DNA from: a virus
Lineage: Duplodnaviria; Caudoviricetes
DNA length: 56,311 nucleotides
Reading direction: 5' to 3' (one strand)
Virus record (IMG/VR): IMGVR_UViG_3300013763_000001
Location: 1-56,311 of that record
This document shows, one piece after another, positions 4,102 to 51,883 of the stretch. The notes under the pieces were generated by a model. That model did not search any database. It was given only the letters and a program-made list of their open reading frames with translations, and was not told the DNA's origin. How positions within the stretch are numbered: position 1 is the first letter of the stretch; every line of letters begins with the position of its first letter. Made by a program: the position numbers and the translations under genes.

Positions 4102-4123
4102 CTAGATGTAAGGGGGACAATGG

Positions 4124-4438
4124 ATGAGCCGCTACTTTCACGTCGCGCCAGCAGATTATCATATCGGGGATGATCTGCTTTGCCGCGACGAGTTGGAAGC
4201 GGAGGGCCGCTTGCCGGTGTGGAAGTTTGATGGCGAACCGTTCGACACCGATGTCGTCTGCCTCTTTTCGACGCACGCTGAAGCGGTTGAGTTCGTGCGC
4301 GATTTTCTCAGCGACGGCATCGTTCTGGCCGTTAATCTCCATGATGCCGAAGCGTGGGGGCTACGCCTCACGCGCGTTGACGAAGGCTTTACCGCAGCCT
4401 TCGGGCGCATCCCGGCGCATCTCGTCACGGTAGCATAA
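4124..4438 (+). CDS. hypothetical protein
   Basis: Directly after the promoter and AAGGGGG RBS; TAATG coupling to the next gene. Confidence 0.7.
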   Translation: MSRYFHVAPADYHIGDDLLCRDELEAEGRLPVWKFDGEPFDTDVVCLFSTHAEAVEFVRDFLSDGIVLAVNLHDAEAWGLRLTRVDEGFTAAFGRIPAHLVTVA

Positions 4439-7314: not shown

Positions 7315-7764
7315 TCACGGCGCGGCGATGCCGAGATGATCCACCGCGAGCGGGCCGAGGTGCTCCCATTTGCAGTCGTAGGCGTTGTCCACAAACGTCC
7401 TCAACGTGTCGGTGCGATAGTCCCAGCAGGCGAAGGACGTTTCGCCGTTGAGACCGTAGAGGTAGCCAATCAGATGCGCCAAGGTATGGCGCCCCATTGA
7501 CGTTGAGGCGACGGCCAGCTTCAGTTGCACGAACCGGCCGGTATTGTCGTGACTGGTGCCGAGCTCCGCTACCTGGCCGTTGGGGCAGACTAGCCGGAGC
7601 TTCTGACGGCCCTTGCGCGGCAGTTCCGTCCAGTCGCGGCGGTATTCCTCAATGACGGTCCCATCGTGGAACTTCATCACCCAGAACGAGCGGCCGGACA
7701 GGCGTGCGTAGGCAACCGGATCACCGGACACGGCGAAACGGATGGGGTCAAGAATGCCGAGCAA
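7315..7764 (-). CDS. hypothetical protein
   Basis: TTG start with AAAGGA RBS; fits the operon. Confidence 0.65.
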   Translation of the reverse strand: MLGILDPIRFAVSGDPVAYARLSGRSFWVMKFHDGTVIEEYRRDWTELPRKGRQKLRLVCPNGQVAELGTSHDNTGRFVQLKLAVASTSMGRHTLAHLIGYLYGLNGETSFACWDYRTDTLRTFVDNAYDCKWEHLGPLAVDHLGIAAP

Positions 7765-7808: not shown

Positions 7809-7891
7809 TGCTATACTGAAGGGTCAAATTGGAGTGCTCCCGCACTGCGCTAACAGCCGGGAGCCGTCACCGAAGATTGGAGCCTTCGATG
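7809..7891 (+). promoter_or_regulatory. HNH leader motif copy 1 (extended -10 plus two hairpins)
   Basis: TGCTATACT 7809-7817; stem GCTCCCG/CGGGAGC 7836-7864; CGAAG-ATTGGAGC-CTTCG directly before ATG 7889. Confidence 0.75.
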
Positions 7892-8548
7892 CCTGTTCAG
7901 TGTACCTGTCTCTCCTGCGGCGCGTCATTCCCAGTGTTCCCGCATGAAATTCGCCGTGGTCGTGGGCAGTACTGTTCCCGCTCGTGCAAGGCCGAAGGGC
8001 AACGTGGCCCGCGTACCGACCTGATTGAGCGCTTCTGGGCAAAGGTAGATACGTCCGGCGGCCCGGATGCGTGCTGGCCCTGGACAGCTTCACGCCATAG
8101 TTACGGGTACGGTCAAATTGGGCTGCCTGGTGGGGGAATCGTTCGTGCTCACCGTTTGGCCTGGGAAATTGCGAACGGCCCGATACCTGAAGGCAAAGGC
8201 ATCCTCCACTCTTGCGACAACCCACCTTGCTGCAATGCACGCCATTTGCGTCCGGGCACAGACTTGGACAATGCCGCTGACGCCAAAGCGCATGGAAGGC
8301 CACGTGGACGCCGCCGACTGTTGCAAAGAAAGCCGAAAGCACCGCCGAAGATTCCTAATCGGAGCGGTACTCACAACGGACGCGCGAAACTCTCGGAAGC
8401 AGCAGTTCACGACATCATTGCCCACTGCCCCCGCCGAAATGCCGCATACGCCGCCTTTGGGGCAAAATATGGCGTCTCGTTGACCGCAGTCGCATTTGTG
8501 GTGCGCGAGCAGACATGGAAGCATATCCCGCGCACTACAGAAACCTAG
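7889..8548 (+). CDS. free-standing HNH homing endonuclease (antisense insert 1)
   Basis: N-terminal CxxC...YCSRSC finger; RFWAKVD...CWPWT...YGYG...AHRLAW...HSCDNPPCCNARHL...DN; C-terminal 'AKL' HTH-like tail. Confidence 0.92.
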   Translation: MPVQCTCLSCGASFPVFPHEIRRGRGQYCSRSCKAEGQRGPRTDLIERFWAKVDTSGGPDACWPWTASRHSYGYGQIGLPGGGIVRAHRLAWEIANGPIPEGKGILHSCDNPPCCNARHLRPGTDLDNAADAKAHGRPRGRRRLLQRKPKAPPKIPNRSGTHNGRAKLSEAAVHDIIAHCPRRNAAYAAFGAKYGVSLTAVAFVVREQTWKHIPRTTET

Positions 8549-9276
8549 GCAAAAGTGTACTTCACCGAAACATCATTGGCGTAAGTACCCGTACTTTGGT
8601 TCGGGCCGGTGAACAGAGCGATCATAATATTTATGTTATCGGCTGTGGTTGCGGCTGGGGTAGCAGGGAACTGTAACCAGTCGTTATCTCCCTGTAAACC
8701 TTGGAAATTGGTTGCCCAGTTGGCTCCGGCAGTCGGCGTCACGGCGCCGGTCGTACCGTCCGTCACCACCGGTGCATTGGTCGGAGCAGCGGCAGGAGCG
8801 CCGGCAGTGACCACACGGCCGAACATATTGGCCTTGAGGTAGGAGCGTGCGGTAGCGCCGGTGTCGGTGGTGTTCCCACCCAGCAGCGAGTTATCGCCGC
8901 GCGTGACGGCAGCGTGCGCGTTGGTCGGGTAGGCGGTGAGAATGGGTGCGCTAGCGAAGCTGCCGACGGCATCGTAGTTGATGCGCGCCTGGAGGTAACT
9001 CGCGTTGGTGAACGCGGCCGGGGTCGTACTCGTGGTGCCGAGCACACCCAGCGAGGTCGTGTCTGCGCTGAACACGTAGAGGTAGGGCACCGCAGCGGTT
9101 GCGGCCGGCCGTGTCATGTACGGCCAGGATGCTGAGGCGGTGGCACCGGCGGTGTTGACATCCAGGAAGCGCAACTCCTGGCCGGTGCCAGCACCCCAGG
9201 CAGGGACGTTACTCCAAACGGGCGTCGCCTGGGTGCCGGTGTTGGCTTGGATCTGGAGCGTCGAAAAATCGGCCAA
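8545..9276 (-). CDS. putative virion structural protein
   Basis: A/T/G-rich 243 aa ORF with GAAAGG RBS; last ~55 codons unusually A/T-ending. Confidence 0.7.
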   Translation of the reverse strand: MADFSTLQIQANTGTQATPVWSNVPAWGAGTGQELRFLDVNTAGATASASWPYMTRPAATAAVPYLYVFSADTTSLGVLGTTSTTPAAFTNASYLQARINYDAVGSFASAPILTAYPTNAHAAVTRGDNSLLGGNTTDTGATARSYLKANMFGRVVTAGAPAAAPTNAPVVTDGTTGAVTPTAGANWATNFQGLQGDNDWLQFPATPAATTADNINIMIALFTGPNQSTGTYANDVSVKYTFA

Positions 9277-9393: not shown

Positions 9394-9903
9394 CTACGGA
9401 AGTTTTCCAGCCGCCGCTTCACCGCCGCTCACCGGGGTGATGTCGATGATCCGGGCGTCGGGGGCGGCAGGCGTGGGGGCGATTTGCAGTGTGACGACGT
9501 GCTGGGTGGGGGGTGCTGGCTGAATGACAACCGGGGCAGGCTTGACGTTGGTGCTGTCGTCTCGGATGGTTTGCGCCATCGCGATTGGCACCGGGAGGCC
9601 GCTCACGGTGCCAGGTGGCGTGGCACTGCCGGTCAACAGGTGATAAATTCCTATTGCACTGGCGCCGGACAACGCACCGGAGCCGACCAACAAGAGCCAA
9701 GAATTGCCGGTGGCCGGCCACGGTCCCCCAATGAGCGTATCGACCGCCATCAACGCCACACCGAGCAAGAGCGCGAGCGCACGAACGAGCGTGTCATGGT
9801 TGGGGGCAGTCGGCTGGACCCACACCTCCAACAGTGGTTTGAATAGAGTTTGGATGAGTACCGCCACGAGTGCGGCGACGGTGCCATCGACGACAAAGTT
9901 CAT
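9394..9903 (-). CDS. holin-like membrane protein
   Basis: Three hydrophobic segments ending GALSGASAIGIY, then a Pro-rich tail; lies downstream of the endolysin. Confidence 0.7.
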   Translation of the reverse strand: MNFVVDGTVAALVAVLIQTLFKPLLEVWVQPTAPNHDTLVRALALLLGVALMAVDTLIGGPWPATGNSWLLLVGSGALSGASAIGIYHLLTGSATPPGTVSGLPVPIAMAQTIRDDSTNVKPAPVVIQPAPPTQHVVTLQIAPTPAAPDARIIDITPVSGGEAAAGKLP

Positions 9904-10526
9904 TGCGCGGGTACTCCTTCTGCTACCTGGGGGACGGCGGCCTGCATGACCGCTGCTTGTGCTTCCGGCGTGCTGGCCGGGGTTGGGATGGCGATGGGAG
10001 GATGAGTAGGTACTGGCTGGAGTTCCGGCTTACAGTGATTGTGTTCCCAGTCCCAGTTGAATTTGTCCAGAGCCTGCTGTACCTCGCCGGGATCATTGGT
10101 GTAGATGAAGATATTGTCCTGGAGTTGTGCGCTGTCGCTCAGGTTATAGCTTCCTGTGGCAAGTGCCGACGTGTCGGACAGCGCCCCGTCAGCGCCGTCG
10201 ATGATCGTGTTCTTAAGGTGGTCTAACTGACCATGTTCGCTACTGCCAATCTTGACCTGGATGCGACCGTTGACAGCGCCAGCATCAACCAGGATTTGAA
10301 CAGCGTGCTTGTCTGCGGGACCGCCGTATTGGCGAACGTCGTTGAACACTCGAACCAGGACGCCTCGATTCGCCGCCGTCACGATATTCGTGACGAACAC
10401 GAGATCGGTCAGGCCGAACATCTCACAATCGAGACTGTGCTGAGCCGTCAGAGGCAGCGCATCAACGACGCTCTTTACGTCGTCACCGGGTGAGTAAAGT
10501 GTGTGCCTGAAGCGGATGACGCTCAC
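9900..10526 (-). CDS. phospholipase D-family (single HKD, Nuc-like) protein
   Basis: AANRGVLVRV.ND; HLKNTIID (HxKxxxxD); TGSYNLS...DN. Confidence 0.85.
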   Translation of the reverse strand: MSVIRFRHTLYSPGDDVKSVVDALPLTAQHSLDCEMFGLTDLVFVTNIVTAANRGVLVRVFNDVRQYGGPADKHAVQILVDAGAVNGRIQVKIGSSEHGQLDHLKNTIIDGADGALSDTSALATGSYNLSDSAQLQDNIFIYTNDPGEVQQALDKFNWDWEHNHCKPELQPVPTHPPIAIPTPASTPEAQAAVMQAAVPQVAEGVPAQ

Positions 10527-14308: not shown

Positions 14309-14511
14309 CTCTCAACGTTGAGCACCGTCAGGTAGTCAGGAATAGTCGCCATCGGCGCTGCGTGGCTCCAGTAGTCGCCGCGCAGGAAGTAGTCCGGGAA
14401 GTAGTCCGGCAGGTCGTAGCGATATTTTGTCCAGGTCCCCCGCGACAGGCGGCGGTAGATGCGTAGGCATCCAAACAAGTTGTCTAGACCTTTCAACATA
14501 CACACTCCCAT
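14296..14511 (-). CDS. hypothetical protein
   Basis: ORF in the minus-strand operon; start could be ATG 14499. Confidence 0.5.
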   Translation of the reverse strand: MGVCMLKGLDNLFGCLRIYRRLSRGTWTKYRYDLPDYFPDYFLRGDYWSHAAPMATIPDYLTVLNVERWDG

Positions 14512-14542: not shown

Positions 14543-14629
14543 TATAATAAATGGTCACTTAATGGTGGTGACGCCGCGAGCGTGCAAGGCTCCGGCGTCG
14601 TGGCTCAACGTAGCTTGGAGTACGTCATG
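14543..14629 (+). promoter_or_regulatory. HNH leader motif copy 2
   Basis: TATAAT 14543-14548; stem GACGCCG-C-GAGC-loop-GCTC-CGGCGTC 14570-14599; ACGTA-GCTTGGAG-TACGT-C-ATG 14627. Confidence 0.75.
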
Positions 14630-15301
14630 CAATCGCATTCTACCCTGCCACCACTCCCTCTGTACTGTCGATTCTGTGGAAGCACATTCCGGTATCATCG
14701 AGAGATATTCGCTAGCCTTATATATTGCTGCAGAGCATGCAAGGATTCTGATGCTCCGTATATGGCGCTCCGCCGATTTTGGCGTCACGTTGATCGGAGC
14801 AATCCCAATGGTTGCTGGATATGGAAAGGTGCGCTCAGAAGTAAAGGATACGGACACTGCACATTCGGCGACAGGACTATGGGTGCTCATAAAGTAGCGT
14901 ACCTAACGATGATTGGCCCTGTACCCAAGGGACTTTTCGTCATGCATACTTGCGACATTCCCCGCTGCTGCAATCCCGCACATCTTCGGCTGGGTACCTG
15001 TGCGGACAATAATGCAGACATGCGAGAAAAGAAACGTCACCGGTTCGGCGATCGTCACCCCATGCGTACCAATCCAGAATGTCGCGCTACAGGGGAAAGG
15101 AGCGGAATGCGTAAACATCCTGAGTTGGTACGGCGGGGCGAGGATGCAGCCGGAGCGAAATTGGAAGCTGCCGATATTGCTGTGATTAGATCACGATATG
15201 CCGCCGGAGAGATGCAAAAGGTACTCGCCGCACAGTTCAACATATCCTCAGCCCACGTCTCTGGAATCGTCAACCGCAAGTTCTGGAAACACCTACCATA
15301 G
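14627..15301 (+). CDS. free-standing HNH homing endonuclease (antisense insert 2)
   Basis: CRFCG...YCCRAC; RFWRHVD...CWIWKG...GYG...AHKVAY...HTCDIPRCCNPAHL.LGT..DN; lower GC than the flanks. Confidence 0.92.
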   Translation: MQSHSTLPPLPLYCRFCGSTFRYHREIFASLIYCCRACKDSDAPYMALRRFWRHVDRSNPNGCWIWKGALRSKGYGHCTFGDRTMGAHKVAYLTMIGPVPKGLFVMHTCDIPRCCNPAHLRLGTCADNNADMREKKRHRFGDRHPMRTNPECRATGERSGMRKHPELVRRGEDAAGAKLEAADIAVIRSRYAAGEMQKVLAAQFNISSAHVSGIVNRKFWKHLP

Positions 15302-15421
15302 AAGTTGGCACCCGCATGCCGCACAGAGATGCACATTGACCCTGCGCGGCGACATCACGGTCCAGTACGTATTGCTCATTTCCCGGCGGCAGCAGGAGCA
15401 GCGTGCGGTGTAGCCGGTCAC
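15293..15421 (-). CDS. small CxxC-CxxC zinc-binding peptide (42 aa)
   Basis: Hand-translated: GTG overlapping the upstream TGA; MTGYTARCSCCRREMSNTYWTVMSPRRVNVHLCAACGCQLLW. Confidence 0.5.
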   Translation of the reverse strand: MTGYTARCSCCRREMSNTYWTVMSPRRVNVHLCAACGCQLLW

Positions 15422-15963
15422 TGCACGTCCAGCCTTGCCAGCGCCGGTATCGGGATGCCGTGACGGTTCAGTTCACGCCGAAGTACGATGTTTGCGGCAT
15501 CAAGGTTATCGACGCGCGCTTTCAGTACATCGTGGCGTGTCGTCACATTCGCAAGTTGATCTCTCAGGCTGTCATTTTCCACGTGCAGCGCCGTGTTTGC
15601 ACGCCGCAACGTATCCAGGTCGGTGCTGAGGTGGTTCAGTTCCTCACGCAGCACGCGCTGATCCGCCGTCAAGGCAGTCACTTCAGTTCGCAGGTTGCTG
15701 ACAATCCATTGCCAGTCGGCACTGATCTGGGCGCGGTCGACTTCGCTCGCGTCAATCTTTGCTGTTGCCGTCGCCTCGTCCAGCAGTCGCTTCCGCTCAA
15801 TGGCGTCGGTTTGCGCCTTCTTGCGAGCGGTGTACGCTGCCAGTCGGGGCCCGGCGATGATCGTCCCCACCACGGTGATAATCGCTGCAATCACCGGGTA
15901 GGCCGTGCCGATATTTTCCATACGGAGCCTACTTCCCGACAGGCGGCGCAACAACAACATCAT
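15418..15963 (-). CDS. membrane-anchored coiled-coil protein (lysis-associated?)
   Basis: One TM segment (VIAAIITVVGTIIAG) then long heptad repeats; start at 15963 or 15921. Confidence 0.7.
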   Translation of the reverse strand: MMLLLRRLSGSRLRMENIGTAYPVIAAIITVVGTIIAGPRLAAYTARKKAQTDAIERKRLLDEATATAKIDASEVDRAQISADWQWIVSNLRTEVTALTADQRVLREELNHLSTDLDTLRRANTALHVENDSLRDQLANVTTRHDVLKARVDNLDAANIVLRRELNRHGIPIPALARLDVQ

Positions 15964-16372
15964 TTGCGCCCTCACGGGCCAGGAGCCAGATCGCAGCGGC
16001 AAAGCAGCACAGGGACTGCGCCCATAACACGATGATGGCCGGCGCGACAATCGCCGTCGCCGCGCCGATGTACACCCACCAGGCGACTGCTACCGCGCGC
16101 GCGCTGTGATGCACCCAGGGGCGGCCGCTCATCCAGCCGAGCGGCGTCACCAGCATGGCAAATGTTGCCGGCCATATCCAGACGCCTTTGTACGTCAGCA
16201 CGATATCGACACTGGTGTGCGCGTACATGCCGTCCGGGGTAAATGCCAGGAACACCACCCAGCAGAGGACGAAGGCATAGACGAGCGCGTCCACCGGGCC
16301 GGTGTTGGCGCGCAGGAGCACACGGAGCGCACGGCTGAGGACAGCGCGCAAGAGCGTTCGTGGTTTGATCAC
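15929..16372 (-). CDS. multi-pass membrane protein
   Basis: About four hydrophobic segments; AGGAGG RBS. Confidence 0.7.
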   Translation of the reverse strand: MIKPRTLLRAVLSRALRVLLRANTGPVDALVYAFVLCWVVFLAFTPDGMYAHTSVDIVLTYKGVWIWPATFAMLVTPLGWMSGRPWVHHSARAVAVAWWVYIGAATAIVAPAIIVLWAQSLCCFAAAIWLLAREGANDVVVAPPVGK

Positions 16373-20190: not shown

Positions 20191-20673
20191 CTAGGCTCCT
20201 TGCGCCATAATCGAAAAGTTCGTCATCGTCTGTGTGCCCGGATCGGTGTTCTCGAAAATGAACGTCGTCGCTGTGGTGCTGATAGCGGTCGGCTGCCACG
20301 TTGCGTTCGGATGGATTGCGCCGCCGTTCATGCAGCTCCCAGAGACGGCCGGGAGACTGGCGAAGGACCGCGCAAACGTCAGGGTGTAGCTCACCGTGCC
20401 CGAGCTGGCGACACTCACGCTGCCTTGCGCCGGGTACACCTCGGCGTGGGTCGCCGCTGCCGTGCCTTCAACGCACCGGTTGCCATTGGCCGTCACATTG
20501 CCGGTTGCCGCCATGACGCCGGCCACGCCGCCAGTCAGCGTGGTTGCGCCGGTCACGGCCAGCGTCCCGGCCAGCGCTACCGGGTTGTTGACCGCAGCGG
20601 TAAGTGTGTTCACAATTTGATTAACGTCAGCGGCCAGGATTCCCCCGCCGCTCGCTACCTGATAAAGCGCCAT
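20191..20673 (-). CDS. short tail-fibre-like protein (C-terminal H-type-lectin-like fold)
   Basis: ILAADVNQI N-terminus; G.V.V...TLTFARSFASLPAV...STTATTF. Confidence 0.65.
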   Translation of the reverse strand: MALYQVASGGGILAADVNQIVNTLTAAVNNPVALAGTLAVTGATTLTGGVAGVMAATGNVTANGNRCVEGTAAATHAEVYPAQGSVSVASSGTVSYTLTFARSFASLPAVSGSCMNGGAIHPNATWQPTAISTTATTFIFENTDPGTQTMTNFSIMAQGA

Positions 20674-20699: not shown

Positions 20700-20787
20700 T
20701 GGTAAAATGAAGGCAGTTAATTGGTGTGGACCGGCGACGCTACCAACGTCCCGGTCCCGGCACAAACGTGATTGGAGCACGCTCATG
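20700..20787 (+). promoter_or_regulatory. HNH leader motif copy 3
   Basis: TGGTAAAAT 20700-20708; stem GGACCGG-C-GACG-loop-CGTC-CCGGTCC 20728-20757; CGTG-ATTGGAG-CACG-CTC-ATG 20785. Confidence 0.75.
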
Positions 20788-21438
20788 CGGAGCAATTCTA
20801 CCCCGTCGCCCAGAATGCGCCCATCGTTCGAGCGCATCTCGTGTACCTGCAATGCTTGCAACAAAGTATTTACGATTCACCCATCAGCAGCACGGAGAGG
20901 AGGAGGCGTGTACTGTTCCAGCAATTGCTATCACACAGGCCGCTATGAACATACCGCCGCTGAACGCTTCTGGGCACGTATTGACAAGACAGGAGAATGT
21001 TGGCTGTGGACGGGTAAAGCGCACTTGTCGTTTGGTTATGGACATCTGAGTTTTCACGGACGTACTACGTCCTCCCATCGAGTCGCTTGGGAACTAACAT
21101 ATGGTCCTATCCCAGACGGAATGACGGTAATGCATTCCGTCTGTGACAATCCGCCGTGTTGTCGTCCAGACCATCTGAAGTTAGGTACGAATGCCGATAA
21201 CCTTAAGGAAATGTGGGCAAAGGGGAGAGGGCATACCCCAATGATGGACGGTAGCTTCATTCGGCTCATTGGCTCTCAACACCCTCTATCGAAACTCACT
21301 GAAAGTGATGTCTGCGAAATGCGCCGCCTCTATGATACTAAGTTATGTACGGTCGCTGAGTTGGCGCGTCGGTACCCCATCTCGTACATGGTTGCAAAGA
21401 GAATCGTGTTTCGTCTATCTTGGAAGCATCTTCCGTGA
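20785..21438 (+). CDS. free-standing HNH homing endonuclease (antisense insert 3)
   Basis: CNACN...YCSSNC; RFWARID...CWLWTG...GYG...SHRVAW...CDNPPCCRPDHL.LGT..DN; SKLT tail. Confidence 0.92.
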   Translation: MRSNSTPSPRMRPSFERISCTCNACNKVFTIHPSAARRGGGVYCSSNCYHTGRYEHTAAERFWARIDKTGECWLWTGKAHLSFGYGHLSFHGRTTSSHRVAWELTYGPIPDGMTVMHSVCDNPPCCRPDHLKLGTNADNLKEMWAKGRGHTPMMDGSFIRLIGSQHPLSKLTESDVCEMRRLYDTKLCTVAELARRYPISYMVAKRIVFRLSWKHLP

Positions 21439-21439
21439 T

Positions 21440-21916
21440 CTACCCGATACTTATTTGGCATGCAAGAACAGCCGTCAGTAGGTTCGTCTTGACTTCGCTC
21501 ACGACCGTATGGCTCAGCAGGCTGCCGTTATTCACCGCGCTCGTTGCACCGAGGAACAGCCCCGCCTCTGTCCAGGTGCCGTTTGCCTGCGAGGTGCTGA
21601 AAAAGAAGGACATTGTCACGGCATTCGCCGCGCGGCTGTTTGTGCCCAGGAGCACCCTTGCCAGCTCCGTGCCGAGTTGCGTATCCGCCGCCGCCGGCGC
21701 AACCGCGCTCGTCCCCACCGCGCCATAGATGTTGGCCAGCGTCTGTGCAGGCGTTTCGACATTGAGCCATTGGGCGATATAGGCCTTGCCGTTGACACAA
21801 ATTGTGTTGCGATACTGGTGCTCGCTCACCAGTCGGCCGCTGCGTGCGTCAAACATGCGCGTCGTCCAGATACCGGTGACGCGGATGGTGTCCGCGACTG
21901 TGACTAGCCTATCCAT
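21440..21916 (-). CDS. tail-collar/baseplate-like structural protein
   Basis: N.I...G...IA...AVGT...P...DTQL..EL.R...ANGTWTEAGLF pattern. Confidence 0.7.
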   Translation of the reverse strand: MDRLVTVADTIRVTGIWTTRMFDARSGRLVSEHQYRNTICVNGKAYIAQWLNVETPAQTLANIYGAVGTSAVAPAAADTQLGTELARVLLGTNSRAANAVTMSFFFSTSQANGTWTEAGLFLGATSAVNNGSLLSHTVVSEVKTNLLTAVLACQISIG

Positions 21917-32915: not shown

Positions 32916-33230
32916 TTACGCTCCATTCTGCCGGTATGGCCGGCGTTGCGGCTTACGCCGCTTCTCTACTGGCAACAGGACATTGGACCGGCGAGTACGT
33001 GACGGCAGCGCATCATCATCGGCATCCGCTGCGACCGGTAGCCGCTTGACGAACACGGCGCGCCCACGCTCGTCGGCGGCGATCCCTTGCAAGAAGGTGA
33101 TCTCGTCGGGGTCGCTCGTCGTGTACTCGCCGGCTGAAAAGATGATGCGATACTCCCGGCCAGTCGCACGGTCGAAGCCATGCGCCATATAGCCGGGGTA
33201 AGGGCTGCCGAAGATAGCCTCGGTCGTCAT
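32916..33230 (-). CDS. hypothetical protein
   Basis: MTTEAIFGSPYPG...F..GEYTTSDPDEI.FL. Confidence 0.65.
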   Translation of the reverse strand: MTTEAIFGSPYPGYMAHGFDRATGREYRIIFSAGEYTTSDPDEITFLQGIAADERGRAVFVKRLPVAADADDDALPSRTRRSNVLLPVEKRRKPQRRPYRQNGA

Positions 33231-33289
33231 AATAGCGTAATGTCCATACGCTATACTCCTTTCACGAACGTGTGTATGGAGGATGCATC

Positions 33290-33937
33290 TTGGAAGAGAC
33301 AAAGCGCTGTCCCAGTTGCGGGGAGACGAAGCCCCGTACGTTCGAGTTCTTCTATCACAACAGCAGGACTGTCAGCGGTTTTACTGTGTACTGCCGGAAA
33401 TGTACGAACGCGAAGTATGCGCTGATCCGCTATGCCGTGACTGAGCGTAGCAAGGAGAAGGTGCGAGATGGCACCGTCACCGAGAAACGCTGTCCAACCT
33501 GCGGCGAGACGAAGGCGCTAGACGCTTTCTACGGACATCGGGGCAACACCTACGGGAAAACAGCCCTCTGCAAAATATGCCTGGACGCGAAGCAAAAGGC
33601 GCGAGCGATGGCCCGCAAGGAAGCTGGGCTGCCGCACGTTCAGTCCGAGCGTCGGCGCGCCTTCCGCATGCGCGTCCTGTGCCACTACAGCGGCGGCGAG
33701 ACGCCGTTCTGCGCCTGCTGCCACACCACCTACCTGCCCCACCTGACGATGGACCATATCAACGGTGGCGGCGCTGAGGATAGAAAAACCAAGTCGAGTT
33801 CCACACTCTACCAGCGCATCTGCGAAGCAGGGTTCCCTCCTGAGTTCCAAATACTTTGTTGGAGTTGCAATATGGCAAAGTTCCAACTTGGTGCGTGTGG
33901 ATGCCAGGAAGTGAGGGTTACGACTGCCTTGCGCTAG
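33290..33937 (+). CDS. zinc-finger HNH-like endonuclease (antisense insert 4)
   Basis: Two KRCP.CGETK...F...C..C fingers; CACC...LTMDHINGGG...QILCWSCN; TATACT 33252-33257; GGAGG before TTG 33290. Confidence 0.85.
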   Translation: MEETKRCPSCGETKPRTFEFFYHNSRTVSGFTVYCRKCTNAKYALIRYAVTERSKEKVRDGTVTEKRCPTCGETKALDAFYGHRGNTYGKTALCKICLDAKQKARAMARKEAGLPHVQSERRRAFRMRVLCHYSGGETPFCACCHTTYLPHLTMDHINGGGAEDRKTKSSSTLYQRICEAGFPPEFQILCWSCNMAKFQLGACGCQEVRVTTALR

Positions 33938-35004
33938 TAGGCAAGCCCGTAGACGACCCCAAACGCCTTTTGTACCCTTAGCTCAAGGGACATTTCTGAC
34001 GTTATCATCCGCTCGATCTGCGTTTGGACCCTTGCAAGCGGCTCCGTGCCGAGCTTGATGAGCGTCGCGCGCTTCAACAGCTTGGTGTTGAGCAGGACCA
34101 TGACGCCTGCGGGCAGCTTCGGCTCCCAGGCGATGGCGACCTTGCTGAAGCCGGTGTTGTAGTAGCTGGTGTTCGATCCCGCCGTGAGGTCGCCGTTCTG
34201 CGGCGTCATAATCGTCGGGTGCCAGGTGTTGATGACCTCCAACTGACTGGCGTTGACCAGCAGCAGGTCGGGCATGTACGGCGTCAACTGATTGGCCATG
34301 TTCTTGGCCAGGTCGCGCAGCATCTGCTCTACCAGCGCCGTGCCGGTGTAAGGAGCGGCCGCGGCATTGATCAGCTGCCCGCCACCGTAGCCGGTCTGCG
34401 CGCCAAAGCCGGCCAGGACGCCAGCGCCGAGGATCTCCAAGATGCCGTTGAACTGGCTGGTGATGGCCGTACCGCTGGCGGGTGACGGCGAGGCCGGGAC
34501 CGGCGCGTTGGTGTTGTTGGCGCTGTTGCCGTTGACCAGGCACCACTCAATCTCGTTGAGGACTTCTTCCATCTTGAGCGTGGTGTCGAGGTCCAGCGCA
34601 TCCTGGATGTTTCGCTCGAGCTCGCCATCGGCCAGGCGCCAGGAACCGGCGCCGGTGAACAGCGCGGCTTCAGTATCGGTCACGGCGGCGGTCTTGCCGA
34701 AGCGGCCGACGGTATTGCTGATCTGCGTCGGCGCCTGGAAGTCGGCGACCGGCTTGCCGCCTTCGGCATAACCGGCGGTGCTACCGGTCGCAGCAATCAA
34801 GCCTTGCTCGTCCCAGACGTGCGTCTTTGCGCGCATCGGCACTTCGCCGATGGCCGGCACCGGCGCGCCGCCCCGGATGTTCTGCGCCTGGAGCAACGGC
34901 CGGATCGGGCCATCCACGACGCTAATCAGGCCGGAGAGGTCTTGCCGGATATAGTTCGCGGCCTGGACGCTATCCATTGCCTTGCGGACTTCGACCATGG
35001 TCAT
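33934..35004 (-). CDS. major capsid protein (DUF5309/SU10-like)
   Basis: DLS..I..VD...P...H.WDE...EG...N.....K...VTDT...EIE..L..G...GI...E.LA...E..LE; synteny; strongly GC3-biased. Confidence 0.85.
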   Translation of the reverse strand: MTMVEVRKAMDSVQAANYIRQDLSGLISVVDGPIRPLLQAQNIRGGAPVPAIGEVPMRAKTHVWDEQGLIAATGSTAGYAEGGKPVADFQAPTQISNTVGRFGKTAAVTDTEAALFTGAGSWRLADGELERNIQDALDLDTTLKMEEVLNEIEWCLVNGNSANNTNAPVPASPSPASGTAITSQFNGILEILGAGVLAGFGAQTGYGGGQLINAAAAPYTGTALVEQMLRDLAKNMANQLTPYMPDLLLVNASQLEVINTWHPTIMTPQNGDLTAGSNTSYYNTGFSKVAIAWEPKLPAGVMVLLNTKLLKRATLIKLGTEPLARVQTQIERMITSEMSLELRVQKAFGVVYGLAY

Positions 35005-36304: not shown

Positions 36305-36668
36305 CCCATGCCTCCTTGTGCTCGGTGATGGCGTCCGGCTGGTACTGCGCCCGAGCGCCGATGAGGTCACGCCGCCCGCCTTGCTGCTCTTTCGCTCGCT
36401 TGGCAATGATGCGGCACAGTTCGGACAGCCCCTCGTGCCGTGACTCGCCGGTACGCGCCAGGATCACGGCCAGCGCGCGCACGCCCACCGGCACCAGCGC
36501 GCGTGTCCCGGCAATGTCCCAGCACTCGACATAGACCAGGCCGTTGTCAACAGAGAGTCGCGCGGCGGCCAGATCAACCCGATGCGTCAAGGCGCGGATG
36601 AACGGCTCAATGACGAGGCCCGCGTGGCGCATGCGCTGGTCTTCGGAAAGGGATAGCGTGACTTGCAT
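36288..36668 (-). CDS. hypothetical protein
   Basis: GAGGGGAG RBS; TGATG coupling. Confidence 0.6.
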   Translation of the reverse strand: MQVTLSLSEDQRMRHAGLVIEPFIRALTHRVDLAAARLSVDNGLVYVECWDIAGTRALVPVGVRALAVILARTGESRHEGLSELCRIIAKRAKEQQGGRRDLIGARAQYQPDAITEHKEAWDAVNA

Positions 36669-37294
36669 CACTCTCCCCTCCAGGGAGCCGCTATCTTGGT
36701 CGTGTGCAAGCCCCAGCGATCGTGGCAATTTGGATGGGGTATATCCCCCACCAAGCTATCGTTGATGTCGTAGGGGTTGCCGCTGGCGATTGACTGGCAC
36801 AGTTTGCAGGCCAAACTACCGCCAAATACGGCCGTGCCGCTCGCCTGGCTCTGTGCGATGAACTCGCGTTGCGCCGCGCCGGCTCCATGCGCCACCTCGG
36901 TCAGCGCCAACTGCGGCACCTTCCAGGCGTCGCGCTCCACCGACCACTGCGCGATTTCTTCCGGCGTTGCGCCGCCGTCTTTGCTGTCGAGAAACTCCAG
37001 CAGGTCATGCTCCCAGGTGGTGCCTACCTGCATCGCCACCCGTTCGGCGTGCTGGCGAATATCGGCCACGACCGCCGGGTTGCTGATCCGCACATAGCCA
37101 GGATCAATGCCGGCGGTCGCCAGTTCGTACATCACGGCCTGCTGGTACGTTTGCAGGCCAGTCTGAAAGAGGATATCGGCCAGGCTGTTGCCACCCGTGG
37201 CGCTTTCCTCAGCGTTGAGCCGCGCTATCGCCTGCCGTACCTGGACGCGGAAACGACCAGACGGGAGCGTGGCGAGCGCGGCGGCGGTGGGCAT
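36668..37294 (-). CDS. MuF-like head morphogenesis protein
   Basis: A.TE...CKLC...N.PY...PHPNC. Confidence 0.7.
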   Translation of the reverse strand: MPTAAALATLPSGRFRVQVRQAIARLNAEESATGGNSLADILFQTGLQTYQQAVMYELATAGIDPGYVRISNPAVVADIRQHAERVAMQVGTTWEHDLLEFLDSKDGGATPEEIAQWSVERDAWKVPQLALTEVAHGAGAAQREFIAQSQASGTAVFGGSLACKLCQSIASGNPYDINDSLVGDIPHPNCHDRWGLHTTKIAAPWRGE

Positions 37295-37494: not shown

Positions 37495-38067
37495 TTACCG
37501 CTTCGCAGCCGGCTTGGCCTGCGGCGGCAACGGCTCACTGCTCACCGACTCGCGTACCTGCGAACGGTAGGCGTCGGCACGGTCGCCGGCGGCGTCGGCC
37601 AGGTCGTTCTGGCGGCGCTTCTCGCCCTTGTCGTCAGCGTTGGCGGCGCGTTCCTTCGCGCTCGCTTCCTCCAGGTCGGCTGGCCCGCCTTGCAACGGTC
37701 GCTTCTCCGCCTCGGTCGCAAACTGTCCCGGCGCGTTCAGGTCGGCAGGCGACACGGCGGCCACCGGCGAATCTTCGAAGATGCTGGGCCGGATGCCGGT
37801 CACGCGGTGAATCTGGTGCGCGTTGAGGTTGCCGGGAATGTGCTCCGGCAAGAGGTCCTTTACGTCCAGGACGCGACTCGGCAGGATGCGGATGACCGGT
37901 ACGCTGCAATTGCCGCAACGCTCATCTAGGCCAGCCGTCTGGTACGGCGCGCTGCCGTCACTATGCACGACGTGCTCCGGCTTGATCCCCGCGCCGTCTG
38001 CCGGCGCGTCCTTCAGGAAAAAGGCAATATGGTTGCAGTGCTCACACTGGTAGGCTTTGACGCTCAT
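37495..38067 (-). CDS. hypothetical zinc-binding protein
   Basis: CEHC...CGNC; RBS AAAGGAG at 38081-38075. Confidence 0.65.
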   Translation of the reverse strand: MSVKAYQCEHCNHIAFFLKDAPADGAGIKPEHVVHSDGSAPYQTAGLDERCGNCSVPVIRILPSRVLDVKDLLPEHIPGNLNAHQIHRVTGIRPSIFEDSPVAAVSPADLNAPGQFATEAEKRPLQGGPADLEEASAKERAANADDKGEKRRQNDLADAAGDRADAYRSQVRESVSSEPLPPQAKPAAKR

Positions 38068-38072
38068 GCTAT

Positions 38073-39284
38073 GACTCCTTTAAGATTCGGATGATTCCCC
38101 GCCCCGTTTGTGTTATACTGAGCATATGCACAAATCCTTTCGATATCGCCTGTACCCAACGAAGGCACAGGCTCGCGTGATGCAGCAAACGCTGGACGAG
38201 TGCCGCTGGTTGTACAACCACCTCCTGGAACAGCGCAAGACATCCTGGGAGGAACGGCAGGAGTCGATCTCGCTGTATCAGCAACTTGGCACGATCCCGT
38301 CGCTCAAGCTGGAGCGCCAGTCCCTGGCATCTGTCCACAGCCAGGTCTTGCAGAATGTCGGGGTGCGATTGGACCTCGCCTTCCAGGCATTCTTCCGGCG
38401 CGTCAAGGCGGGTGAGGAGCCGGGCTATCCCCGATTCCGGGGGGCTGGTTGGTACGATGGCTTCACCTACCCGCAGGAAGGACGCAAGGGCGGCACGTGG
38501 CTGGAGACGCTCCCAAACGGGAAGCAGGCCATCCGGCTTGCCAAGATCGGCGCGATCAAGATGGTCTACCATCGCCCCGTGGAAGGGCACATCAAGACCA
38601 CCTGCGTCAAGCGTTGTAGTACCGGCAAGTGGTACGTTACCTTTAGTTGCGAAGTCGAGGACGCGCCCCTGCCGGAACGCACCGAGCAGGTCGGCATCGA
38701 CGTTGGCCTGAAGACGTTCGCCACTCTCAGTGACGGGTCCACGATCGACAGTCCGCGTTTCTTCCGGGCTGAGGAAAAGGCGCTCAAGCGGGTGTCCCGA
38801 CAGCACGCCAAGCTTGCCAAGGGCACTCCTGAACGCCGGAAGCACCGCAAGGCCGTGGCCCGCGTGCATGAGCGGGTCAGCTTCCGTCGCCATAACTTCG
38901 TGCATCAGGAGTCGCGTCGAATCGTGGACGGCCACCAGGTTATCGCGGTAGAGGACCTGGCCGTCAACCGTCTGCTGCACAACCACTGTCTATCGAAGAG
39001 CATCAGCGATGCGGCATGGGGTATGTTCGCGTCGATACTGTCTGGCAAGGCCGCAAGTGCCGGTCGGCAGTACATCGCCGTCAATCCAGCGTACACTAGC
39101 CAGGACTGTAGCCGCTGCCACCATCGGCAAAAGATGCTGCTGTCCGACCGGGTGTACCGCTGCCCGTGCTGTGGTTTGGTCATTGGCCGGGACCACAATG
39201 CGGCCTTGAATATTTTGGGCTTGGGACAACAAGCCCTGGGACTCGTCCCGAGAAGCCCCTGTCTTTAGACAGGGGAGTTGTCAC
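38073..39284 (+). mobile_element. tnpB-only IS200/IS605-derived element
   Basis: Right-end hairpin CCCCTGTC-TTTA-GACAGGGG (39256-39275) then TCAC (39281-39284); no tnpA; no matching left-end hairpin seen; left boundary uncertain. Confidence 0.8.
38126..39268 (+). CDS. tnpB: RNA-guided endonuclease TnpB
   Basis: KSFRYRLYPT HTH; GYPRF; RuvC-I VGIDVG, RuvC-II AVEDL, zinc finger TSQDCSRC...CPCC, RuvC-III RDHNAA.NI; TGTTATACT 6 nt before ATG. Confidence 0.97.
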   Translation: MHKSFRYRLYPTKAQARVMQQTLDECRWLYNHLLEQRKTSWEERQESISLYQQLGTIPSLKLERQSLASVHSQVLQNVGVRLDLAFQAFFRRVKAGEEPGYPRFRGAGWYDGFTYPQEGRKGGTWLETLPNGKQAIRLAKIGAIKMVYHRPVEGHIKTTCVKRCSTGKWYVTFSCEVEDAPLPERTEQVGIDVGLKTFATLSDGSTIDSPRFFRAEEKALKRVSRQHAKLAKGTPERRKHRKAVARVHERVSFRRHNFVHQESRRIVDGHQVIAVEDLAVNRLLHNHCLSKSISDAAWGMFASILSGKAASAGRQYIAVNPAYTSQDCSRCHHRQKMLLSDRVYRCPCCGLVIGRDHNAALNILGLGQQALGLVPRSPCL

Positions 39285-39300
39285 GACTCCTTGCTGTCTG
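39190..39300 (+). ncRNA. predicted TnpB omegaRNA/reRNA 3' part; guide begins GACTCCTTGCTGTCTG at 39285
   Basis: Inferred from established TnpB biology: the scaffold overlaps the tnpB 3' end/right end and the guide is the flank after the end. The 5' boundary is not determinable. Confidence 0.6.
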
Positions 39301-40882
39301 CGTTCGGGCCACGATTGGCACCGATCTCACGCGCCAGATGCGCGCTCTTGTTGCCGAGGTTCTCGGCCAGGCGTGACGCGGTGTCCTTGACAATCTGCCG
39401 GAACCACTCCGGCGTCTCGTCCTCAGCCTTCTTCACCGGCGTGTTGCTGCTCGCTACCGGCGCTGGCACGACTGGCATCCCCGGTGCGGTTGGCGTTGCA
39501 CTACCAGCAACCGGCGGTTGTCGCAATCCTGCAGGCGGCTGTTTCGTGCCGTTGATGTCCTCCGGGTCCTGAATCTCCGCGCTCATCGCACCTTTCGCCG
39601 TCAGCAGGACGCTATCGGGATCACCTGGCTTGCCGACCACCCACAACTGCCGTCCGCCCATGTACAGCGGCTCATCCATGCCATCGACTGGCGGAAGATT
39701 GAGCACCTTCAACGCTTGATTGCCGGACGCGCCGACGTGCGTCATCAGTTCAGCAGCTTGCAGGCGATCCAGGCGTATCTTCGTCGTGTTGGGAGCAAGG
39801 ATGGTGATGTCACTGTTCGCAAGCGCGCCGAGCATCACCACGCGGTTGAAGTCCTCGAAGACGGCTTTCTGCTCCGGCGCGATGACGTTCTCGTCAAACA
39901 TCACCTGGTCTTGCTCTTTACCGTTGCCGCCCAGCGAGCCGCTAAACGCCGTAATCAGCGAGAGCGGCACGCTGAAGACCGCCGACACTTCCTCTCGGTT
40001 CCACGTGCGCAACGCGACGAATTCCATATCCTTGTGCAGGCTGGCGCCGTCGCGTACCATGGCGATCTGGCCGTTGAGAAAGAGCGGCGAGTGTGACTGC
40101 GCGGGGTCCGTGAAGTTCTGGAGCAGGTACTCGCGTTCGCGCTCCAGCTTGATCGGGTCCATGTCGTCTTTGATGGCGTACACGTCGCCGGCCTTGACGC
40201 CGTTGCGAAAGAACCCGGTGTTGTACTTCAGCGCCGCCATGTCGTTGGCGAGCGTCGCGTCCAGCGATTCCAGCGGCGCGAGGCCGCCGCCGTTCGGCCC
40301 GCTGTCGTTGAGCGTGCTGTGCCAGATGTCCGCCGCCGGTATCGGCGTGCTGGTGCTCGTCCAACGCCCGTTCGGAAACAGGTCGTACACCTTCACCGGG
40401 CCGCTTGGCTCTGGCCGTGCAACGATGGTGCGAAAGTCGATGCGATGGAGGGCGGCAAGCGTGCCGTCTGGCGCGCGCTGAATCCGCACGTAGCTGTTGC
40501 CGTTGATCTGGCGGTCACGATAGATCGTCCGCAGCAGCCGGTCGAACGATTGCGTCGGGTTGATCTGCGCCAGCCACGTCCGCACCGCCGTGATGCCGGT
40601 CTCGTCTTCCGACTCACTCTTGATGCCGTACTCGTCAGCGGTCGCCGCCTGTGCGATGTAGTCCACGCAGGTGCGTACCCAGGGGCCTTTGGCGTAGAGG
40701 TGATACTGGTAGGCGGCGTCCTCCAGGTGTTCACGCTGCCAGGCGATCGCATCCTGGCTACGTCCGCCGCCAAGGTCGGAGCCGCCCAGGATCACCAGAC
40801 CGTTGCCGTAGGTTTCGAGCTGCCCGGGGTCGCCAATCCCCTTGGCTACCCGCGACGTTGCGCCACGCGCTGTGCTTGCCAT
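39281..40882 (-). CDS. portal protein (HK97 family)
   Basis: V..CVD.IA...NP...GNSY..I.R...G.APL...YN..FF.NG...DMEF..LR...E....F.VP; follows terL. Confidence 0.92.
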   Translation of the reverse strand: MASTARGATSRVAKGIGDPGQLETYGNGLVILGGSDLGGGRSQDAIAWQREHLEDAAYQYHLYAKGPWVRTCVDYIAQAATADEYGIKSESEDETGITAVRTWLAQINPTQSFDRLLRTIYRDRQINGNSYVRIQRAPDGTLAALHRIDFRTIVARPEPSGPVKVYDLFPNGRWTSTSTPIPAADIWHSTLNDSGPNGGGLAPLESLDATLANDMAALKYNTGFFRNGVKAGDVYAIKDDMDPIKLEREREYLLQNFTDPAQSHSPLFLNGQIAMVRDGASLHKDMEFVALRTWNREEVSAVFSVPLSLITAFSGSLGGNGKEQDQVMFDENVIAPEQKAVFEDFNRVVMLGALANSDITILAPNTTKIRLDRLQAAELMTHVGASGNQALKVLNLPPVDGMDEPLYMGGRQLWVVGKPGDPDSVLLTAKGAMSAEIQDPEDINGTKQPPAGLRQPPVAGSATPTAPGMPVVPAPVASSNTPVKKAEDETPEWFRQIVKDTASRLAENLGNKSAHLAREIGANRGPNADSKES

Positions 40883-42264
40883 CCGCCAGCGCCTCCTGCA
40901 AATCGCGCACCCGCGTCGAGACGGGTTACTTCAAGGTCCGGTCGCGTCCGGTATAACTGCTCAATTGCGCCAGCGACGGCGTCAACGGCGTCATCGTGCG
41001 CGCCGCCTGGGAAGCTTTCCGCCTCGTCCAGGAACGCGCTGATCCAGGATCCGCGCACTAGGAGGACGTTTCCGGCTTCGGCAGCGCTACTCACCGGGTT
41101 AGCGCGTATCTCCTTGCTCCCGGTAGAGCGGTTGCCATAAAACGCATAGCCCGGCAGAACATGGCGGCGATAGTGGTCAATCGTGTTGACGCCACTACTG
41201 CCCGGTTCCTGCTCCATCCAGATCGGGATGGCGTAGGTGTCTAGCGCCGCCGTCTGCGCTACCAGCGCCTCGACTGCCTGCGGTGTGCCGCGCATCCGCC
41301 GTATGTCACGGATGTAGTAGCGGCCGTCGTGCATACTCACGAGCGCGCCGACAGTCCAATCAGGATCAGCACCCTTGCGCGCCTCGGTTGCCGCAAGGTC
41401 CCAGAAGCGCACCGAACGTGCCGCTGCCGGCGCCTGATCCACGATCGGGAACCACTGCCGCTGGAACTTGGTGCCGGGTGGACGCGCGAACCAGTCGCCG
41501 GCCAGGAGTTGCGCAAGCGTATACGGATCAAGTTTGGACAGCGACCGGATGTACTCGTCACGATCCAGATGCGGATTGTCGTCCAGGGTCGAAGGAATGA
41601 ACGCGCGTTCCGGGTCGTGCTCCACCATGAAGCGCTGCATCACCCAGGCGTGCCCCGGCCCTCCGGGGTTGGTTGCCGCCCGCATGCGCGTCGGCACCGG
41701 CAACGTCTTCAATCGACGGAGACGACTGAACAAATAACGGTACTGCGATTCGCTGAACTGCGTGAGTTCGTCGAAACAAATTGTTTGAAACGCTGCACCC
41801 TGGTATCGCAGCTTATCGTCTTCGTGCTCCAGGTAGCCAAAGGTCAAGGTGGCCCGACTGGGGAACGTCCACGTCTTCGTCGTCTCGTTCCAGTGCGCCG
41901 CCGTGCCGCTCAGCCACTCCTTGCTGCGCGCCATGATCGCCTCAGGCAAGGAAAGATCAGCATATGTCCGGCGAAGAATCAACGCGGCGTAGCCGGGTAT
42001 ATCGACATATTGCAGTGCCGCCATGAGCAGCGCCTGACTCTTACCGCCGCCCGCCGCGCCGCCAAACAGCGCCTCGTCTTGATGCAGCGTCAGGAATCGC
42101 GCCTGTTTTGGCGTCGGGTTAGACGGTATCCACGGATTGGCGAAGATCGTCTGTTCCAGCAGCAGTTTCGATTGCTGGAACCGTTCCTCCTGAATCGTCA
42201 GTGAAGAGCCGGCGGTAGGCGTCAAAGTCGAAGACGGCAACGGCGCCAACGATAGGCTCGCCAT
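40846..42264 (-). CDS. terL: terminase large subunit
   Basis: Walker A GGAAGGGKS, Walker B ICFDE, ATNPGG.GH.WV, DNP, WDLA, HDD.VDA. Confidence 0.95.
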   Translation of the reverse strand: MASLSLAPLPSSTLTPTAGSSLTIQEERFQQSKLLLEQTIFANPWIPSNPTPKQARFLTLHQDEALFGGAAGGGKSQALLMAALQYVDIPGYAALILRRTYADLSLPEAIMARSKEWLSGTAAHWNETTKTWTFPSRATLTFGYLEHEDDKLRYQGAAFQTICFDELTQFSESQYRYLFSRLRRLKTLPVPTRMRAATNPGGPGHAWVMQRFMVEHDPERAFIPSTLDDNPHLDRDEYIRSLSKLDPYTLAQLLAGDWFARPPGTKFQRQWFPIVDQAPAAARSVRFWDLAATEARKGADPDWTVGALVSMHDGRYYIRDIRRMRGTPQAVEALVAQTAALDTYAIPIWMEQEPGSSGVNTIDHYRRHVLPGYAFYGNRSTGSKEIRANPVSSAAEAGNVLLVRGSWISAFLDEAESFPGGAHDDAVDAVAGAIEQLYRTRPDLEVTRLDAGARFAGGAGGWQAQRVAQRRG

Positions 42265-50625: not shown

Positions 50626-51549
50626 ATGAAAACGATGGTGACGTACCAATGCGCCTACTGCGGCCAGCCATACCAACGGCAAAAGGGCAACCCGTCCGGA
50701 CGTTTCTGTGGTCAGCGGTGCGCTACGTTCATGAACCGTCCGAGCGCAGCATTGCTTATTCCCGATGGGGAACCAATGAGCAAGAGGACGCGCTTCCGCC
50801 GCCGTCGTGCTGCGGGTCTCACCCGACCAGACGGGTTCTACGCGTTCAATGAGGAATTCTTTTTCCGCTGGTCCGACGAACTCGCATGGGTGCTTGGACT
50901 GATCTGGAGTGATGGTTGCCTCTTCGGGAACACGGTCGAAATTTGCTCGAAGGATTCCCAGATCGTAGAACTGGTTGCCGCACTGATCGACCAACCAAAC
51001 GGAATTCGCCTGAAGAATGGCGGGGGAGCGCTGCGAGTCGTATTTACGTCGTGCGCGGTCGCTGCGTTCCTTCGGTCGTTGGGTCTGACGGAAGCGAAGA
51101 GTTTCACGGCACCTTGGCCCGAACTTCCTCCCCGCCTGGAAGGGCACTTTCTCAGGGGATTGCTCGACGGCGACGGATCGGTACTGTTGAACCAGCGTCG
51201 CCCAGGGCAGCAGGTACCAGACCTTTCGGTACAGTGGTGCGGGGCTGCGCCGCTTTTGTTGGCTGGAATCACTTCCTATCTCAGCGCGAACCAAATACGC
51301 TTTTCCGCCGGATGGCAAGAGCGGAACGGAAGGGCGCTTGGTCTCTGGAAGATCACAGTCCAGCAACAGGATTCGCTTCGGCGACTTTACGGGTTGATGT
51401 ATCCTCACCAAGACGTGCCTACCCTTTCTCGCAAGGCTGCGGGTTATTTGGTGTGGATGGAGACGCCGCGGGTGCGTCCAGGAAGGCCAAATCGAACGCC
51501 TTCTGCCCCACCGCCCCTTGCCGTTCCTGTCGTTTCCGGGCCCGCGTAA
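50626..51549 (+). CDS. LAGLIDADG-like homing endonuclease with N-terminal zinc finger (antisense insert)
   Basis: LAWVLGLIWSDG and FLRGLLDGDGSV helices; L.RK near the C-terminus; TGCTATAAT 50611-50619, 6 nt before ATG. Confidence 0.9.
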   Translation: MKTMVTYQCAYCGQPYQRQKGNPSGRFCGQRCATFMNRPSAALLIPDGEPMSKRTRFRRRRAAGLTRPDGFYAFNEEFFFRWSDELAWVLGLIWSDGCLFGNTVEICSKDSQIVELVAALIDQPNGIRLKNGGGALRVVFTSCAVAAFLRSLGLTEAKSFTAPWPELPPRLEGHFLRGLLDGDGSVLLNQRRPGQQVPDLSVQWCGAAPLLLAGITSYLSANQIRFSAGWQERNGRALGLWKITVQQQDSLRRLYGLMYPHQDVPTLSRKAAGYLVWMETPRVRPGRPNRTPSAPPPLAVPVVSGPA

Positions 51550-51883
51550 TCGCGGCGTTCCGTGCATGAAGGGGCCCATCGAGGGCCAGATGATGGAACT
51601 GGCATAATGCGGTCAGGTTGCTGTCCTCACTACTCCCCCCGTCGGCCAGGGCGACGATGTGATGCACCGTGAGCACCACGCGGATGATCTTGTGCTCCGG
51701 CTCGCAGCCGAGGCCGTCATAGCCACTGACGGCGTACCAGCCGCCGCGCCGATCGCGGTAGCCATATGCGCCGTGGGTCAGGCCGCAACGCTCGCAGCGC
51801 CAGTGCGCGCGCTCCTTTACGCGGTCGCTGATCTCGCGCCAATCAAGCGGGTAAAGCAAACGCAGTTGGGCGGAGATAGGCAC
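51419..51883 (-). CDS. HNH-family protein (resident)
   Basis: YP.DW.EIS..VKERA..RCE.CG...VLTVHH...NL.ALCQ.HHL..D. Confidence 0.85.
   Translation of the reverse strand: MPISAQLRLLYPLDWREISDRVKERAHWRCERCGLTHGAYGYRDRRGGWYAVSGYDGLGCEPEHKIIRVVLTVHHIVALADGGSSEDSNLTALCQFHHLALDGPLHARNAAITRARKRQERQGAVGQKAFDLAFLDAPAASPSTPNNPQPCEKG

Follow-up and report, generated by a model that had tools for sequence, protein, structure and literature searches.

Why do conserved genes of a phage that otherwise prefers G/C-ending codons switch to rare codons shortly before their stops, at the very places where a nuclease gene has been inserted behind them? The question is raised by the complete IMG/VR virus record IMGVR_UViG_3300013763_000001, an uncultured soil phage of 56,311 bases and 63% G+C (this whole stretch of DNA is hereafter called the window). 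The minus strand carries almost every gene, and the gene order is broken by four plus-strand endonuclease genes, three of the HNH_3 type and one of the Endo VII-motif type, the 3' end of each facing that of a gene on the minus strand. An initial annotation had quoted rare codons in the tails of three of these neighbours, the capsid gene, 8545-9276 and 21440-21916, and had described them as the synonymously recoded ends of essential genes, marking nuclease targets and self-immunity patches. The quoted codons are present in the sequence as described, and the codon anomaly of the tails is associated with adjacent inserts. The explanation that we favour, with moderate confidence, is that the tails are nuclease-linked homing flanks that would reach to the cut site, be co-converted with the nuclease gene and carry resistant codons.

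Judged by the nuclease domain families assigned to them, the inserts are free-standing endonuclease genes, as the initial annotation had proposed. Insert 1 (7829..8548), insert 2 (14582..15301) and insert 3 (20707..21438), all on the plus strand, match HNH_3 (PF13392) with E values of 8.3e-13, 1.5e-11 and 4.9e-13 (48.2, 44.1 and 48.9 bits, above the Pfam cut-off of 24.8 bits) and are mutually 33-35% identical. Insert 4 (33272..33937, plus strand) is unrelated to them; it combines zinc-ribbon repeats with an Endo VII-like motif at its C-terminus, has no Pfam match at E 0.01, and was assigned through PHROG endonuclease families, namely phrog_2255 (HNH) at 4e-13, phrog_1035 and phrog_2633 (endonuclease VII) down to 2e-8, and phrog_5558. 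Its C-terminus shows a C-x-x-C ... D-H ... R ... C-x-x-C-N arrangement, and both insert 4 and its homologue in the related locus L005 have C147/C150, D-H162, R171, C196, C199 and N200; the second histidine of DHDH is missing. The predicted structure of insert 4 was unusable (predicted local distance difference test score, pLDDT, of 50.5), no solved structure matched inserts 4 or 1 by sequence, and viral contigs yielded, for insert 4, 12 distant zinc-ribbon matches, none adjoining a capsid gene. The fraction of codons ending in G or C (GC3) is 0.59, 0.52, 0.525 and 0.71 in inserts 1 to 4, thus 0.52-0.71 against 0.78 for the genes of the genome.

All four inserts are intergenic, the flanking genes being complete and ending at the junctions, and Rfam gave no match in the window, hence no intron match. 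Insert 3 ends 1 nucleotide before the stop codon of 21440-21916, and insert 2 lies 116 nucleotides from 15418-15921. One palindromic CTAG is common to both converging stops at 8545-8548, at 33934-33937 and at 3891-3894 of L005, so that shared-CTAG junctions involve two unrelated nuclease families. A perfect 13-nucleotide inverted repeat (14374-14386 / 15341-15353) lies on either side of insert 2 and might represent cassette ends, although with a rough chance estimate of ~0.03 for the region it may be a chance occurrence; no other direct or inverted repeats were found at insert ends. The nearest genome found, the 45-kb contig G001:C654 (c654), binned in a metagenome-assembled genome of the Chloroflexota, has a syntenic structural module in common with the window at 35-66% protein identity, and all four inserts are absent from it. 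Among relatives, insert sites are sporadically filled or empty at the same position. Elsewhere, no capsid homologue turned up in 400 additional genomes from the phylum of G001, and GenBank phages gave no DNA match to the capsid locus and no tblastn match to the capsid or 8545-9276 proteins.

Tail codon usage was scanned in the 60 genes of at least 75 codons, taking for each gene the terminal 10-70 codons differing most from the remainder, with GC3 and a codon-adaptiveness score as the two measures and permutation of codons within each gene as the test of significance. The tail drops were confirmed in all three named genes. By GC3, the four 3' ends abutted by nuclease genes ranked 1, 3, 4 and 16 (Mann-Whitney p 0.0019), so that a drop is not equally common at other gene ends; by codon score they ranked 1, 6, 7 and 17 (p 0.0037). 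The chance of finding at least three of the four among the top 4 of 60 is 4.6e-4 (hypergeometric). The top four by GC3 are 8545-9276, 15929-16321 (12 codons), the capsid gene and 21440-21916, the exception among the nuclease neighbours being that of insert 2 (15418..15921, minus strand), where no clear drop was seen (rank 16-17).

The strongest codon-usage break in the genome lies in the major capsid protein gene (33934..35004, minus strand; SU10-type, PF17236 E 3.8e-29, phrog_1328), whose product has 58 homologues, the best 66% identical. Its last 34 sense codons (33937..34038) have a GC3 of 0.647 against 0.872 in the body (permutation p 0.010) and a codon score z of -5.81 (p <=0.0002; rank 1 of 60). 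The most conserved stretch of the protein (PLARVQTQxERMIT in the alignment) is encoded by this rare-codon tail. The term essential, applied by the initial annotation to all three genes, is apt for this one by virtue of its PF17236 assignment, but the other two can only be called conserved. RNA folding of the tail was nothing unusual (z -0.10), and the tail holds no terminator-like or promoter site. The palindrome CTTGCAAG at the break point was considered as a marker and rejected, its 27 matches against 20.9 expected being no enrichment.

A second phage carries the same arrangement. In L005, whose capsid protein is 64% identical to that of the window, a homologue of insert 4 (41% identity) occupies the same site in the same orientation with the same CTAG overlap, and the last 33 capsid codons have a GC3 of 0.70 against 0.92 (p 0.005). 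By both measures the change point falls at codon -34 (window) and codon -33 (L005), a common break point. None of the three insert-free capsid alleles shows a drop, the p values being 0.80 for c654 (the same allele as L004, L006 and L011), 0.94 for L003 and 0.44 for L007. At positions where the window and L005 have identical amino acids, the same codon is used at 8/24 sites in the tail and 124/196 in the body (p 0.007). The locus itself is present in 4 soil runs from one study, two of which are possible sources of the window; the contigs of these runs are unable to reveal rare variants. In run X3 one contig (depth 4; shorter side 57 letters) connects position 33221 to 34001; the 779 bases skipped (33222-34000) comprise the whole of insert 4, the last 21 capsid sense codons and the stop. 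This contig hints weakly at an insert-free form in which likeness to the window resumes inside the capsid tail. In runs X3 and X4, summed contig depth over insert 4 is lower, which proves nothing.

The longest tail belongs to 8545-9276 (minus strand), a gene for a protein of 243 residues with at least 521 homologues, of which the 119 listed besides its own are 62-92% identical (84-87% is given for the closest). No Pfam or PHROG family was found for it, and its structural model is all-beta (pLDDT 71) with no fold match (Foldseek best E 0.38; wide search best Z 4.7). GC3 in the last 56 codons (8548..8715, the break being placed at 52-63 codons) is 0.518 against 0.785 (p 0.0018; rank 1 of 60), and the protein encoded by the tail is conserved and typical of its clade. 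We compared 11 alleles of this gene type, those of the window and of L017-L026. Behind the gene, L017 holds a phrog_5046 nuclease (E 2.7e-24) and an HNH_3 gene, and L025 a phrog_5046 nuclease (E 2e-30); this intergenic site is a nuclease-gene hot spot, used by at least two families. The site of insert 1 is empty in 8 loci, in 7 of which an orthologue of 7315-7764 directly follows. Compared with the rest of the gene, the last 55 codons have a GC3 lower by 0.27 in the window, by 0.14 in L025 and by 0.10 in L017, against differences of +0.10 to -0.06 among the 8 alleles free of an insert; permutation tests are significant for the window (p 0.0012) and for L025 (p 0.0002). A degenerate DNA pattern built on a different motif of this family recovered only two distant partial homologues and the contig of L017 itself. 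L026 carries tandem paralogues of this type (3001-3717 and 3727-4449), the second copy being 41% identical to the window protein.

The shortest tail is that of 21440-21916 (minus strand), where the last 10-13 codons (21443..21481) have a GC3 of 0.30-0.385 against 0.77 (p 0.013; rank 4 of 60). The protein has 22 homologues, the closest being 79% identical. The site of insert 3 is empty in all six orthologous loci examined, L039 joining a 21440-type to a 20191-type gene, and none of the six insert-free alleles shows the drop (p 0.06-0.46). The last 13 residues of the window protein differ from all homologues except the two closest; outside these, identity is 0.23-0.62 in the tail and 0.51-0.73 in the body. 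The description of the tails as synonymously recoded is fair for the capsid gene and 8545-9276, where the change is mostly synonymous, and less so for 21440-21916, whose tail also differs from most orthologues in amino acids.

With alleles of the three genes pooled, a tail significant at p<0.05 was found in 5/7 nuclease-adjacent and 2/17 insert-free alleles (Fisher p 0.0086). Synonymous choice in the three tails is better fitted by pooled nuclease-gene usage than by genome usage, the tails falling in the top 1.6%, 0.23% and 0.78% of equal-length windows for nuclease-like usage, while the tail beside insert 2 shows no such usage. The tails of 8545-9276 and 21440-21916 align to those of their homologues, and the affinity of tail and body proteins to relatives is correlated in all three genes (Spearman 0.79, 0.55 and 0.89). 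Since tail affinities track those of the bodies, the tails are native proteins spelt with different codons. Displaced old 3' ends were sought with tail peptides (tblastn) in the window and in L005, L017 and L025, and none was found (best off-target E 0.05).

These observations would be accounted for by homing of the following kind. Four free-standing homing endonuclease genes would have been inserted on the plus strand, inverted, directly behind the stops of conserved minus-strand genes. Each tail would be the stretch from the insertion point to the place where the nuclease recognises or cuts alleles lacking the insert, and in every homing event this flank would be copied from the donor along with the nuclease gene. 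The flank would have to differ from the sensitive allele, as otherwise its carrier would be cut; because the protein is constrained and G/C-ending codons are preferred (GC3 0.78-0.87), the differences could only be synonymous and away from preferred codons. Their accumulation may have produced the flat, nuclease-gene-like codon usage of the tails. The anomaly spans the whole tract from junction to break and not a short patch, a pattern at least as compatible with an obligatorily co-converted flank as with the immunity patch alone that the initial annotation had put forward; an immunity patch combined with obligatory co-conversion would explain why the whole tract and not a short site is affected. 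From the sequence, we infer where cleavage takes place, that the resident allele is resistant and that the flank is co-converted.

One alternative is import without any role in immunity. If the tails had merely hitch-hiked with the nuclease genes from donors of lower GC or weaker codon bias and had remained unadapted, the cut site would not be precisely marked; we consider this unlikely. Agreeing with it are a tail GC3 near that of the adjacent nuclease gene (0.65/0.71 for the capsid gene, 0.52/0.59 for 8545-9276 and 0.30-0.39/0.525 for 21440-21916), the match of the tails to nuclease-gene codon usage, the lower GC3 (~0.64-0.65) of the family members L003 and L007, and the co-conversion of flanks established for homing (PMC2790892; PMC5378118). 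Yet the tail proteins are nearest the same relatives as the bodies, with no mosaic sign, the two nuclease-bearing capsid tails are unlike each other at synonymous sites, and no donor sequence was found, GenBank phages being without a match. The independent divergence of these two capsid tails would suit a locally raised mutation rate, in which repeated breaks, error-prone repair or nuclease binding act near the junction, a GC-to-AT bias erodes preferred codons and amino-acid changes are purged. The shift does go to A/T-ending, rare codons, and repair close to mobile introns has been suggested to be mutagenic in yeast mitochondria (PMC5378118), but the change is abrupt and located at one and the same codon in both phages, with no gradient, and genes beyond the inserts mostly show no such effect, a 5' drop occurring only in 20191-20673. 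Furthermore, an uncut resident allele should not undergo repeated repair, and we judge this mutational origin improbable.

The tails could also reflect what happens at gene ends in general, such as a rare-codon ramp before termination, signals of the gene that follows, or coincidence in a set of 60 genes. Drops are indeed present at the ends of 15929-16321, 36668-37294 and 40846-42225, and four insert-free alleles of the 8545 type (L019, L020, L021 and L022) have a lowered GC3 in their last ~14 codons. Against this stand the enrichment of nuclease-adjacent ends, the restriction of the long drop from codon -56 to -15 to the window and L017 among the 11 alleles, and the position of the tails, behind which no gene starts on the same strand. 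Insert-free relatives were expected to lack the drop, and this was borne out for the capsid gene (0/3) and 21440-21916 (0/6) but not fully for 8545-9276, where 2 of 8 were marginal. An ordinary gene-end effect of this kind, with no connection to the nucleases, seems to us very improbable.

Several results nevertheless weigh against nuclease-linked flanks as the explanation. The neighbour of insert 2 lacks a clear drop, and the nuclease-bearing L017 allele is not significant (p 0.126). The two marginal insert-free alleles of the 8545 type reach p 0.039 and 0.042, and several more have a short drop in the last ~14 codons (p >0.05), indicating that the signal belongs partly to the gene itself. 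When the window's own alleles are left out, the pooled comparison becomes 2/3 against 2/17 (p 0.088), so that independent replication is at most suggestive. The 8/24 tail codons alike between the window and L005 speak against a common co-travelling DNA segment. The tail is more conserved than the body in the capsid gene only (0.68 against 0.58), the other two genes giving 0.66 against 0.74 and 0.47 against 0.63. Finally, the 65 gene calls come from our own simple ("crude") codon-model caller.

Homing flanks of the favoured kind have counterparts in well-studied systems. Like MobE, SegF and SegG of the T-even phages, the nuclease genes here sit between conserved genes. SegG reportedly follows the same logic as MobE, cutting inside a neighbouring gene with co-conversion of the flank. 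MobE of T4 nicks within the neighbouring gene and its flank is co-converted; in the T-even phages the target lies inside the neighbour, away from the insertion point, and the carrier is protected by sequence differences (PMC2790892). Unlike the T-even cases, all four inserts are inverted with respect to their neighbours and sit at the stop of the candidate target, two junctions having the shared CTAG, and the candidate flank reveals itself, from sequence alone, through a break in codon usage against a high-GC background. A formal likeness is also offered by the WHO elements of Torulaspora and Lachancea, the unit of which is a nuclease gene just downstream of an essential gene together with a cleavage-resistant 3' end of FBA1 (PMC7282813), and whose target region is under diversifying selection in an arms race (PMC7282813; bioRxiv 2026.08.13.744650). 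Here too a nuclease gene lies directly downstream of a candidate target gene, while the alternative 3' end is suggested by codon usage alone. WHO nucleases are HO-related LAGLIDADG-zinc-finger proteins of eukaryotic hosts, and their homing is marked by clusters of displaced old 3' ends; the phage inserts are of the HNH_3 and Endo VII types only, with no displaced ends found. By nuclease type and by the lack of such ends, they are not members of the WHO family.

Other comparisons concern the enzymes and the flanks separately. F-CphI of cyanophage S-PM2 is a homing endonuclease with a DHHRN/Endo VII motif (PMC6083498). Insert 4 recalls it in its C-terminal arrangement, in being free-standing and in lying beside a conserved structural gene, but it lacks the second DHDH histidine and a Pfam match, and F-CphI is self-protected by an intron in its target gene instead of recoded codons. 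Inserts 1-3 are like I-HmuI in their common HNH_3 domain; I-HmuI-type enzymes nick one strand close to where they are inserted and lie in a group I intron, which the inserts do not. Plant cox1 is said to have exon co-conversion tracts next to mobile group I introns. Raised synonymous diversity has also been described beside mobile introns in yeast mitochondria (PMC5378118). As in these flanks, the coding stretch beside a homing element in the window has a distinct nucleotide history with the protein kept; however, mobile introns are intragenic, and their signal is one of polymorphism or foreign substitutions and not of lost codon bias. Nuclease genes have further been placed at the boundaries of genetic exchange in phages (PMC10448857). 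No report of reduced codon bias next to homing endonuclease genes of phages was found in the literature searched. Taken together, the precedent is good: the underlying mechanism is already well described and plausible here, and it is the codon-bias signal that is unusual.

Two further genes with tail drops are themselves mobile. The transposase gene 38126-39268 (plus strand; phrog_506 E 2e-103), possibly TnpB-like, has rare-codon-rich last 20 codons (z -4.5), for which a guide RNA overlapping its 3' end might account. Together with the 190-codon minus-strand gene 37495-38067, it separates the portal gene (39281-40882) from 36668-37294, the counterparts of which neighbour each other in c654. 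The portal gene converges on the transposase and shows no tail drop (GC3 0.80 against 0.805), so convergent transcription alone is insufficient as a cause. The other mobile gene, a fifth HNH gene (51419-51859, minus strand; phrog_1571 E 3.9e-14), is unrelated to the other four, shares the strand of its neighbours and deviates in codon usage over its last 63 codons. On the far side of insert 3, 20191-20673 (minus strand) opens with 25 codons whose GC3 is 0.52 against 0.81 (rank 1-2 among 61 genes) and aligns to its longer orthologue in L039 only from residue 63 onward, suggesting that insert 3 may have altered its 5' end too. The gene 9900-10421 (minus strand), of the PLD-like nuclease family (PF13091 E 1.5e-10), also has a low GC3 of 0.65. 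Its orthologue in c654 adjoins that of 21440-21916, so that the ~11 kb between the two genes in the window represents a rearrangement or insertion.

A more far-reaching proposal is that these loci are a phage counterpart of WHO, in which a nuclease gene is paired with the recoded 3' end of an essential gene, an arms race drives synonymous diversification and, where a genome is strongly codon-biased, the loss of bias marks the distance from insertion to cut; we put this forward tentatively, as a possibility that is open to considerable doubt. If true, cut sites of uncharacterised homing endonucleases could be read from the sequence, here at ~100 bp for the Endo VII-type nuclease and at ~170 bp and 30-40 bp for the HNH_3 nucleases, giving three concrete predictions. 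If the tails are homing flanks as favoured above, a scan of codon bias would locate the targets and cut sites of free-standing homing endonucleases in high-GC phages without biochemistry. There is also a warning here: where codon usage breaks locally in a phage core gene, the cause can be an adjacent mobile element and not expression or error. In uncultured soil phages, too, selfish genes would then alter the coding sequence of core genes, the capsid gene among them, as is the case in T-even phages and in yeasts.

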